Positions 1,713-4,700 of a stretch of DNA of 18,168 nt are shown here, one piece after another; position 1 is the first letter of the stretch; every line of letters starts with the position of its first letter. The position numbers are program-made. Origin of the DNA: a virus (lineage: Duplodnaviria; Heunggongvirae; Uroviricota; Caudoviricetes); the IMG/VR virus record IMGVR_UViG_2740892218_000008; one strand, given 5' to 3'.

Positions 1713-4700
1713 GCTGAGCTAAGTCGGCACTGGACCGTCACCGAGGACTCGAACCTCGCACACTCAACTTAGAAAGTTGATGCTCTTTCCTGATGAGCTA
1801 GTGACGGCTGGTGGCCCTTGCTGGATTTGAACCAGCGACCTGGCGATTATGAGTCGCTCGCTCTTACCACTGAGCTAAAGGGCCGAGCGAGGAATGATAA
1901 TCATATCTAACAAAGGCTGCAATCCCCCCATGACAAACCTGATTCACTCCTATGCTTTGATTACAATTCAATAACAATATGCAGTCTGCCATCAAAAAAG
2001 CAACACCTATGTTACTCCAAGGATATTTTAGCGTACTCGAACCACATTAATCTCAAAGCTATCAGTACGTCCTATGTTATATATGATAAAATTTTTACTG
2101 CTATCATTGAACGATCTGGACAACACCAAACGATCATCATAACGAGCAAGAACATAATACCAGATATTCTCATAGTAGAGAGTCTGATATTCTTTCTTAA
2201 ACTGAGGTTTATACCAACCAGCAATAAGTGAAAATGCCCAGAAATAAAGCATAAATCCGACCATAACACACTCAATCCTGTGATGACGAATAAAAGACAC
2301 TTCTGCAATACATTTAATAGAAATAAATCTCCTACTTAATCTGATAAACAATGTAATTATTAATGCGGAAATAATACACAATATCAGTGCATCTGGTACA
2401 AACTGTTGATGAATTACTGAAAACTCCAGAGCGAGAGGAACAAAAAGCAGTAGTATCGCAAGAAAAAGTCTAATAAAACTCAAATCCTGCATATTATTTT
2501 TTTGTTTAATACCCAGAAAAAAAACAACACCAATTCCCCAGCCCATCAGGAATATGACAATAACAGTAACAGCATAAAACAAACTTCTGGCTACATCATC
2601 AGCACCAGCCCCGACAACCCACCATGGAAATCCGTAGTAAAAGGAAGTGCCCCAGCCATAAAAATAAGCACTCCCCCACCCAAGAAATCCCATATAGGCA
2701 ATAAAAAGCGAAGACTCTCTGAGTAGTGCACCACCCTTCATAACCACCTCAACACAAGATGATAACATTTGGCTCACAACTCATAGCAAAAGCAATTCAA
2801 TGTCGTCAAGAGAATGCAGGCTAAAAAACATCACATAGCAGCCAGCATGTTTACCGTACAAGTACAACTCAGGGCATAAAAAAACCCACTCGGCAGCGGG
2901 TTTATACATTTTTTACAACATACCAAATTTGCATAAAGCATATGGCTTTTAATCCAGTTTTGCAATATTTTGCTGTAAAAATGCTGCCTTTTGTTTTGAA
3001 CGTGTTCTCGTCACAAGCAATAAAGCATCACTATCAAGCTGTAGAAAAATGTGCTTCATTGCAACCCAGCGTTCAGTAAATGTCTCGGACCAGTTTTTTG
3101 TTGTCACTCCCACCAATGATGCCAGTGTCTGGTATTCATAGGCCTCACGCCCTGCAAGTTCGCTCTTCACATCCTGTGCAGCCAGCCAGATTAACGTCTT
3201 CAGGCGATCCAGTGTCTTACCTGCAATTTTTCTGTTACTTAACAAATCTTTAAACTCGCTCCATGCCCATTGCGTTATGGTGACCTGATGCCCCCATCGA
3301 ACGCTTTCGCTGTAACACCAAAGCAACCATGCTTTCTGATGTTCATCGAGAGACAAAACCGCGCGGCGCCATGAAGAGGTTGAGAATTCAACCGGGCTGA
3401 CCAAAGCAATGGATGAACCTTTTGCGTACGACTGCTTACCGGAAGTCGGCGTATTATCCAGCGTAATCATCTTGCCAGTTACCACATCCAGAATGCGCGG
3501 CTTCTTTCGTTTGTATGTACCAGTATCAAATTGTGCATGCTCCTGCCAGGCTTCGAGCTGGCCTTTCGTTGCTCCGTTCAAGTCAGCAGTAGCTGCCATA
3601 AGTTGCTCACGAACATACTGTAAATATTGGGTATTCATGCAGTAAATCCTTTCTATATTTTGGCATAATTCTTCAACATTCGGTAATCGTTCAAAACCGA
3701 ATCGGGGAAACGACATAAGCACAGGAGCCCCCAGCGACAGCGAAGGAGTTCTGATATATAAGACTCAGACATCATTCATTCCCCGGTTCTCCAATATCTG
3801 TTTCACTCATCATCCATAACTACCTGTAATTGCCCCCCTTTTTTGTAACAGTTCTTATATTGCTATATAGAATAGCCATTACTAATGCATTTAAATTTAA
3901 TAAAATAAAAATTATAAAAACATAAAACACCACGCAAACACACTTAATAAAAACACCGTTACATTAAAAGATAATAAAAAACCACAATAAAAACGAATAA
4001 ATCAATTGTCTCACACAATTATAAAACATCATATTGATTACGCACCTTGTATTACAAACTCACGTATGTAAAATACGCGCACCATTCAAAAAAAAGGAAG
4101 ACAATAACATATGAAAAAAAGTGTCATCGCTGGCGTCTTTATTGCTCTGTCATTTACCACGTGTTCAGCTATCGCGAACAGCCTTACATTATCATTAGCA
4201 AATGATGATGCAGGGAAGTTTCAACCAATACTTAATGATATTTATGGCAATAAACATGAAAACAGAGATGATTACTCACAAGGCTTATTTCTGGGATATA
4301 GCCACGATATCTCAGACTCGAGCCAATTATCTCTCCATATTGCGCAAGATATTTACTCTCCATCAGGCAGTAATAAAAGACACAACACAGCTGTAACTGG
4401 AGACAGAGCTTTTAGTGCATACACTCACACTGGTATTGAATGGAACTCCCTTGCGAATGACTGGATTCGCTATCGATTAGGTACTGACATAGGTGTTGTT
4501 GGCCCCGACGCAGGCGGTCAGAAAGTACAAAATAAAGCTCATGAGATTATTGGGGCAGAAAAATATCATGCATGGGATGATCAAATAGAGAATCGCTACG
4601 GTTATACTGTAAAAGGGATGCTATCCATGACACCAAGTATGGATATTTTAGGTGCTAATGTTGGATTATACCCTGAAGTTTCTGCTGTTACTGGAAACTT

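Follow-up and report, generated by a model that had tools for sequence, protein, structure and literature searches.

Downstream of the late antiterminator gene Q, the 18,168-nucleotide stretch of tailed-phage DNA analysed here (IMG/VR record IMGVR_UViG_2740892218_000008, referred to as the window) carries on its minus strand an open reading frame (ORF) for a predicted inner-membrane protein of 237 residues (2028..2741, stop codon included), and we found this gene to be a new allele of a catalogued, function-unknown family, the STM1630/TfpB family (PF27470), and no new phage part. The best explanation that we can offer, and one to which we give about an even chance of being right, is that its product (the cargo protein) is a dispensable, non-enzymatic envelope protein which benefits the lysogen in its host, and which would be made weakly in the lysogen and strongly after the action of Q. 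Judged by its genes, the window is a lambdoid prophage of Escherichia albertii, since a 100% identical protein is annotated in that species (P0001, a hypothetical protein tagged PF27470) and the gene order of the E. albertii contigs, namely NinG, NinI, LpxR, YlcG, Q, cargo gene, holin, lysozyme, Rz, Nu1 and gpA, matches.

The cargo ORF is a real gene, beyond chance. It can be opened at GTG 2777 (249 aa) or at ATG 2741 (237 aa), the stop ending at 2028; we chose ATG 2741 because the N-termini of the homologs agree with it, sharing the pattern M-x-D-x-x-L-L-R/K-N-S-S, and because a Shine-Dalgarno (SD) sequence, GAGGTGG (2744..2750, minus strand), ends 2 nt upstream of it, in a position which is kept in phage 434 and in the prophages TB4019 and RM11911. 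An SD ahead of the ORF, a multi-pass membrane protein of 237 aa with a Trp/Tyr/Gly-rich segment and an A+T-rich gene lying downstream of Q on the late-operon strand had all been claimed in an earlier reading of the window made without database searches (the sequence-only reading). All of these were confirmed, the protein by translation, hydropathy and an AlphaFold2 (AF2) model, and the composition by a G+C content of 36.6% in the ORF as against 45.2% in the window and 45.2% in Q. The Trp/Tyr/Gly-rich stretch corresponds to residues 16-46, AYMGFLGWGSAYFYGWGTSFYYGFPWWVVGAG, and is the most conserved part of the family.

The cargo protein matched phrog_1521 (E=7e-85), a PHROG of unknown function, and a word-indexed search returned 118 homologs at E<=1e-3, every one of which bears, as P0001 does, the precomputed tag PF27470.1, whose Pfam name is TfpB. 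The assignment to PF27470 was made via these tagged homologs, and the ORF itself gave no Pfam-A match because the release scanned is older than the PF27470 model. A 59%-identical E. coli relative is named 'STM1630 family protein' by the Prokaryotic Genome Annotation Pipeline, and in the same slot phage 434 carries a homolog, CPT_434_68, annotated as 'putative membrane protein'. The family architecture was also found in full, that is, the N-terminal motif A-Y...Y-x-W-G...Y-Y-G-x-P, four further transmembrane (TM) helices and a C-terminal beta-domain with YY(V/I)L. With PF27470, the 'STM1630 family protein' name, phrog_1521 and the 434 homolog all known, the description of the protein as unrecognised had to be given up. 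Remote-homology scans of the ORF against Pfam-A, NCBIfam, PADLOC and annotated PHROGs gave no significant match, and the CPBP/Abi, acyltransferase and lysis-regulator families, which had been put forward as possible relatives, were matched in none of Pfam, NCBIfam, PADLOC and the annotated PHROGs. We rejected a CPBP/Abi protease (PF02517), for which there was no Pfam match at E<=1 and no acidic or His column conserved family-wide, and likewise a membrane acyltransferase of family 3 (PF01757), for which there was no Pfam or NCBIfam match and which has about 10 TM helices as against five here.

Among the homologs, P0065 aligned with the cargo protein at 45% identity over 100% of the query (E 3.4e-68). 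By sequence and setting P0065 is Salmonella STM1630, because its locus adjoins sseJ and frmRA, the tables of PMC6785131 agree with it in the length of the gene and in its neighbours, and the STM1630 deletion primer published there encodes NSSMLLAYLGGLGWG, which is the N-terminus of P0065. According to the S1 Text of PMC6785131, STM1630 is bound by H-NS, has its own mapped promoter and is expressed in macrophages and in medium inducing Salmonella pathogenicity island 2 (SPI-2), while two single-nucleotide polymorphisms in its -10 element accompany non-expression in sequence type ST313. Its deletion in 4/74 led to more intramacrophage replication, and the same text cites reports of STM1630 mutants attenuated in calves and chicks. 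The gene also belongs to a 123-gene cluster co-regulated with SPI-2, together with ugtL, pagD, pqaA and lpxO (PMC2639726). A hypermotility recorded for STM1630 in a screen was missing among the altered-motility mutants on re-testing with clean deletions, and we did not use it as evidence. The DNA upstream of STM1630 could not be aligned with that upstream of the cargo gene of the window.

An AF2 model of the cargo protein, built on a 59-sequence alignment across all clades, reached a mean predicted local distance difference test score (pLDDT) of 80.3 and a predicted template modelling score of 0.74, and it replaces a run with 42 close homologs whose pLDDT was 57.8. The model has five long helices, at about residues 10-36, 47-78, 89-111, 116-138 and 155-181, with which hydropathy agrees, so that the TM topology check proposed in the sequence-only reading yields five predicted TM helices. 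They are followed by a C-terminal beta-domain of five strands (residues 184-235, ~55 aa), and the loop between TM1 and TM2 is the aromatic/Gly-rich one. The loop charges alternate (+, -, +, -, about +5), fitting the positive-inside rule, and because of this alternation we infer an N-in/C-out topology in which the aromatic loop and the beta-domain would be periplasmic. Columns conserved at >=90% across the family hold Ala, Tyr, Gly, Pro and Phe exclusively, with no charged or catalytic-type residue among them, and D48, R52 and K178 are conserved within the enterobacterial clade only. Since the conserved columns are limited to these five residues, the cargo protein is unlikely to be an enzyme. 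Comparison with solved structures and with viral predicted structures found none resembling the model.

Turning to how the gene may be expressed, we placed at the 3' end of Q a putative late promoter pR' of the phage 82 type (2917..2965, minus strand), with a -35 element TTGCAA (2965..2960), an N17 spacer and a -10 element TATGCT (2942..2937). Downstream of this -10 lies a -10-like repeat, TATGTT (2917..2922, minus strand), which is a candidate for a sigma-dependent pause element. The -35 reaches into the 3' end of Q, and the elements straddle the Q stop codon; they align column-for-column with the lambda-type pR' (TTGACT-N17-TAAATT) of prophage TB4019, and it is because of this alignment that we read TTGCAA/TATGCT and the repeat as a putative 82-type pR' with its pause element. 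The functional assignment of pR' follows the late promoters of lambda and 82. About 30-55 nt after the pR' elements comes an intrinsic terminator (2878..2903, minus strand), in which a 9-bp stem closes a GCCG loop and U7 follows; the 63-nt stretch holding hairpin and U7 folds at -15.9 kcal/mol (z = -2.4), and in phage 434 the corresponding place is annotated as a terminator. This hairpin is the tR' equivalent, the Q-controlled terminator which Q-modified RNA polymerase would read through. The sequence-only reading was thus right that a hairpin with U7 is present, while its attribution to the moron (a gene added to the phage genome as cargo) did not stand, the hairpin being tR' after an 82-type pR'. 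Since the hairpin is taken as tR' and the cargo ORF begins 136 nt past the U-tract, the ORF would be the first gene of the Q-dependent late transcript, and its late-operon expression is what this position predicts. The next terminator downstream of the cargo gene comes no earlier than 1563..1544, past the tRNA cluster, where a hairpin followed by a T-run (1544..1563, minus strand) resembles an intrinsic terminator.

Between tR' and the SD we also found a candidate sigma70-type promoter (2780..2809, minus strand), made up of a -35 element TTGACG (2809..2804), an 18-nt spacer, an extended TGn (2788..2786) and a -10 element TATGAG (2785..2780). The two hexamers claimed in the sequence-only reading therefore exist, 18 nt apart; the promoter is non-canonical, its -10 having no T at position 6 (the -7 T), which is why a consensus scan did not list it. 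The block from terminator to SD, including TTGAC(G/T)-N18-TGnTATG(A/T)(G/A), travels with the gene in 434, TB4019 and RM11911 despite their differing Q/pR' modules, so that in the alignment the candidate promoter is kept with the gene behind three different modules. Autonomous expression from this element is plausible.

The gene behaves as a moron in other respects also. In phage 434B the stretch from Q to lysis, including the homolog, is replaced by DLP12 DNA without a family member, and this phage was grown and sequenced as one that makes plaques; because it still does so, a close relative of the cargo gene is dispensable for phage growth. Absence from syntenic relatives and dispensability, by which Hendrix and colleagues recognise morons, were both found, as was a deviant base composition (36.6% vs 45.2% G+C), and the authors of that sequencing work call the non-syntenic genes of 21 and 434 morons. 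The classification as a moron in the sequence-only reading was accordingly upheld by the presence of a homolog in only 3 of 50,697 phage records, by the deviant G+C and by 434B. Its premise that this slot normally holds pR', qut and tR' alone was mistaken, given that the Q-to-holin interval of relatives holds tRNAs, toxin genes and an esterase gene.

Comparison of alleles placed a mosaic junction inside the cargo gene, at roughly 2516. From window position 3800 to ~2516, that is, from Q into the first ~200 nt of the gene, the DNA is 95.8% identical to that of 434, and the two proteins are 59.5% identical overall. Along the gene the identity to the 434 allele starts at 77-88% in the first ~200 nt, drops to 38-50% in the middle and rises again to ~70-77% towards the 3' end; the RM11911 allele, which follows a different Q type, is 70-92% identical over nearly the whole gene and falls to 60% only where the 3' end is reached. 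Recombination between Q modules and cargo may use the conserved 5' end as a linker.

The family extends well beyond phages. When 1.84 billion representative proteins were searched exhaustively with a profile, 72 clusters came up at E<=1e-3; they form four groups, namely enterobacterial copies, a group of Neisseriaceae and Pasteurellaceae, a group of Klebsiella, Enterobacter, Raoultella and Mangrovibacter, and a few metagenomic outliers; a profile scan of genome contigs with a narrower alignment gave 6 loci. Full-length relatives occur in >=10 genera, with homologs of 45-81% identity across Enterobacterales, and the Salmonella cluster (STM1630) alone has 2681 member sequences. A homolog is present in 1197 of the 5426 complete E. 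coli genomes (~22%), in up to 4 matching places per genome, as against 3 of 50,697 phage records (434 once, 2B8 twice). One 59%-identical member lies on a 3-kb contig of a 'Veillonella sp.' metagenome-assembled genome, probably a mis-binned enterobacterial contig.

Among prophages the gene follows four antiterminator types: the PF06323 Q82-type in the window prophage and phage 434, a lambda-type Q/pR' in TB4019, a DUF1133 antiterminator in RM11911, where tRNA-Ile, -Arg and -Gly and then holins come after the gene, and a PF06530 antiterminator in a Yersinia enterocolitica prophage. In a Cronobacter prophage it has LT-II-like toxin genes on one side and pertussis-like ones on the other and lies upstream of the holins, and in Citrobacter freundii it comes after the tail-fibre genes. 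The order in the Cronobacter locus (1070..8369 of L025) is an LT-II-like A+B pair, a Q fragment, the STM1630-family gene and a pertussis-like S2S3+S1 pair, that is, three cargo units stacked in one Q-to-holin slot. Homologs were found on 156 plasmids, 106 of them Shigella plasmid records with full-length members, and with plasmids of porcine enterotoxigenic E. coli (ETEC) also included. The copy on virulence plasmid pCP301 (140876..141592) is full-length, flanked by insertion sequences and ~5 kb from spa40, and that on the porcine ETEC plasmid pGMI14-004_1 (32289..33002) is full-length, divergent from eltAB and near the genes for STb and EAST1. Chromosomal orphan copies occur in Salmonella, Citrobacter rodentium, Klebsiella, Neisseria and Pasteurellaceae. 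Those of Salmonella and C. rodentium lie in an islet beside frmA with sseJ or a split LpxR, respectively, as divergent neighbour, STM1630 being placed between sseJ and steB outside any prophage, and those of Neisseria, Avibacterium and a metagenomic relative are set among housekeeping genes. No paper bearing on the Shigella, 434 or E. coli copies came up in a literature search by their locus tags and accessions. As these prophage, plasmid and chromosomal contexts all differ, the family gene is horizontally mobile cargo which moves among prophage slots, virulence plasmids and chromosomal islets.

Put together as a mechanism, our explanation would run as follows. In the lysogen the gene would be transcribed at a low level from the conserved TTGACG-N18-TGnTATGAG element, this transcription probably being silenced by H-NS, as in the A+T-rich Salmonella relative, and readthrough of tR' may add to it. 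After induction, Q would let polymerase from pR' pass tR', giving strong transcription. The protein would bind an envelope component rather than catalyse a reaction, and would thereby alter the surface or envelope physiology of the lysogen, which would be of use to host and prophage together in the animal gut rather than to virion production. Several points tell against this explanation. No family member has a demonstrated function; the Salmonella STM1630 phenotypes are mild, the motility phenotype of the screen being missing from those reported in the clean-deletion re-test; and the topology rests on hydropathy and charge. The candidate promoter has no -7 T and is absent from the consensus-scan list. 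Co-location with toxins and effectors could merely mirror shared hot spots of mobile DNA, and the highly variable central third (38-50% DNA identity to 434) also fits an arms-race function such as phage exclusion.

Superinfection exclusion, by a membrane protein which blocks DNA entry or triggers abortive infection as Sie/Rex-type moron products do, we hold to be rather unlikely. It would suit a small, apparently non-enzymatic, polytopic membrane protein carried as a prophage moron at classic places for cargo, behind Q and behind the tail-fibre genes, with a strongly allelic central region between conserved ends and with ~22% of complete E. coli genomes positive at up to 4 matching places each. 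However, no PADLOC family was matched and all PHROG matches were of unknown function, none bearing an exclusion or defence annotation; the Salmonella copy occurs widely (2681 members), lies outside prophages beside effector genes of the type III secretion system and is regulated in the SPI-2 manner; and other copies stand on virulence plasmids beside toxin genes or, in Neisseria and Pasteurellaceae, among housekeeping genes outside defence islands. Another reading, in itself unlikely, is that the STM1630/TfpB family supplies a dedicated non-enzymatic envelope factor with a specific host-interaction role, acquired repeatedly by enteric pathogens alongside toxins, effectors and lipid A modifiers, as on Shigella pINV and ETEC eltAB plasmids, at Salmonella sseJ-steB, in prophages with LT-II/pertussis-like toxins and in LpxR-carrying 434-type phages. 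If this were true, its possible roles would include gating the release of toxins or vesicles, tuning a PhoQ-like sensor or controlling latent LpxR activity, and the prophage copy would be a virulence or fitness gene of lysogenic conversion.

The gene is on the late transcript directly after tR', its product is a membrane protein, and a holin gene follows 1-3 kb downstream in TB4019 and 434, all of which would agree with a late function in which the first late gene tunes holin triggering or the state of the membrane. Such a role in lysis timing is highly improbable, since 434B forms plaques without the gene, no lysis genes are near the copies of Salmonella, C. rodentium, Shigella pINV, ETEC plasmids, Neisseria and Pasteurellaceae, no lysis-category PHROG matched the cargo protein, the window has a separate class II holin gene (80..295), and only 3 of 50,697 phage records hold a homolog. 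Very unlikely, too, is an accessory role in type IV pili, that is, a membrane chaperone or adapter for filament assembly comparable to TfpY, TfpZ and FimB. The suggestion comes from the Pfam name TfpB, from the second family clade in Neisseriaceae and Pasteurellaceae, and from the published description of TfpY-like proteins as being of 235-245 aa, with N-terminal TM helices, a beta-containing periplasmic C-terminal part and no recognisable enzymatic domain (PMC11841053). But no pilin or pilus-assembly gene adjoins the family gene in any locus whose neighbours were read, and the model has five TM helices vs three in TfpY-like proteins. The Pfam name could not be traced to a pilus gene, literature uses of TfpB concerning type IVb pili and an Acinetobacter motor, and three database searches found no Moraxella or Pseudomonas member of the family. 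A tfpB ORF is part of the pilin inversion region of Moraxella bovis.

As to the neighbouring genes, Q (2949..3638, minus strand) is of the 82 type, with a Pfam Phage_antiter_Q match at 1.7e-91 and 89.6% DNA identity to the Q of phage 82. Mechanically its ORF reaches back to GTG 3722 (257 aa); since the Pfam match begins at residue 32 and the E. albertii gene calls give 229 aa, ATG 3638 is the likely start, the protein then beginning MNTQYL, and the record of phage 434 notes the same ambiguity. On the far side of Q from the cargo gene comes ylcG and then, on the opposite strand, lpxR (4111..5070, plus strand), encoding an LpxR-type outer-membrane lipid A 3'-O-deacylase (phrog_2309, 1e-229; Pfam LpxR in the E. 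albertii contigs). This LpxR cargo sits between ninI and ylcG/Q, in an arrangement identical to that of phage 434, and in C. rodentium the STM1630-family gene has a split LpxR gene directly beside it, in divergent orientation. A functional link between the LpxR and STM1630-family cargo genes is possible. At 13909..13967 (plus strand) Rfam found Lambda_thermo, the cIII thermoregulator (88.5 bits), a match that one would expect in the early-left region of a lambdoid genome.

On the other side of the cargo gene, ARAGORN and Rfam found four tRNA genes (1575..1884, minus strand) with the anticodons CAU, UCU (Arg), UGU (Thr) and UCC (Gly), and clusters of a similar kind trail the cargo homolog in RM11911 and UTI89. 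ARAGORN read the CAU tRNA as Met, and other records also label similar DNA as tRNA-Met; in some records of phages of the Shiga toxin (Stx) type (phi330, Nil2; 88% identity) DNA like this cluster is annotated as tRNA-Ile and tRNA-Arg, and because of these annotations the CAU tRNA may be an AUA-reading Ile2. Of the 25 Ile codons in the cargo ORF 6 are AUA, and of its 14 Arg codons 6 are AGA. That the neighbouring tRNAs might serve the codons of the cargo gene found weak support, cognate-codon use being modestly high at most (7.6 per 100 codons, as against 3.1-8.1 in other genes of the window), and we set it aside. No gene is called in the E. albertii contigs in the gap of ~1.2 kb (340..1545, minus strand) that separates the tRNA cluster from the holin gene. 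The two ORFs of the gap, at 911..1192 and 1352..1534, had no PHROG match, blastn of this gap against 50,697 phage records gave no match, and among complete E. coli genomes the match was limited to its last ~60 nt. The gap has a G+C of 35-43% and a strong terminator-like hairpin at 1019..999.

In terms of phage biology the window copy is ordinary lambdoid cargo, and the understanding of late-gene control is unchanged by it. What makes the family noteworthy is that, small as it is (72 representative clusters) and with no solved or recognisably similar structure, it persists in intact copies beside major virulence determinants of Salmonella, Shigella, ETEC and prophages of the enterohaemorrhagic E. 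coli type. The phage copy, being Q-inducible and dispensable and having natural alleles, offers a handle for the study of STM1630-type proteins.

Set against known systems, the cargo protein is a full-length homolog of STM1630 (237 vs 238 aa), sharing the N-terminal aromatic/Gly motif and the C-terminal domain, and both genes are A+T-rich, horizontally acquired and function-unknown; STM1630 differs in being chromosomal, between the effector genes sseJ and steB, with its own mapped promoter and SPI-2-type expression, whereas the window copy is prophage cargo behind Q and tR'. With CPT_434_68 of phage 434 (OL657226.1) and its counterpart in phage 2B8 the window shares the order LpxR, YlcG, Q82-type Q, terminator and gene, but the central and 3' parts of the 434 allele are 38-77% identical in DNA, the window allele being closer there to the RM11911 type, and downstream of the gene 434 has TciB/DUF3927, a small membrane protein and a SASA esterase, where the window has four tRNAs instead. 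The lambdoid morons of the Q-to-S interval, such as stx with ileZ-argN-argO, the LT-II/pertussis-like toxins and nanS-p, resemble the cargo gene in location, deviant composition, dispensability and association with tRNAs, although the window product is an integral membrane protein and not a secreted toxin or enzyme. By their description in PMC11841053, TfpY, TfpZ and FimB resemble it in length, N-terminal TM helices, a periplasmic beta-containing C-terminal part and the lack of a catalytic domain, and differ from it in having three TM helices rather than five and in that their genes directly follow the major pilin gene, an arrangement absent from all the family loci that we read.

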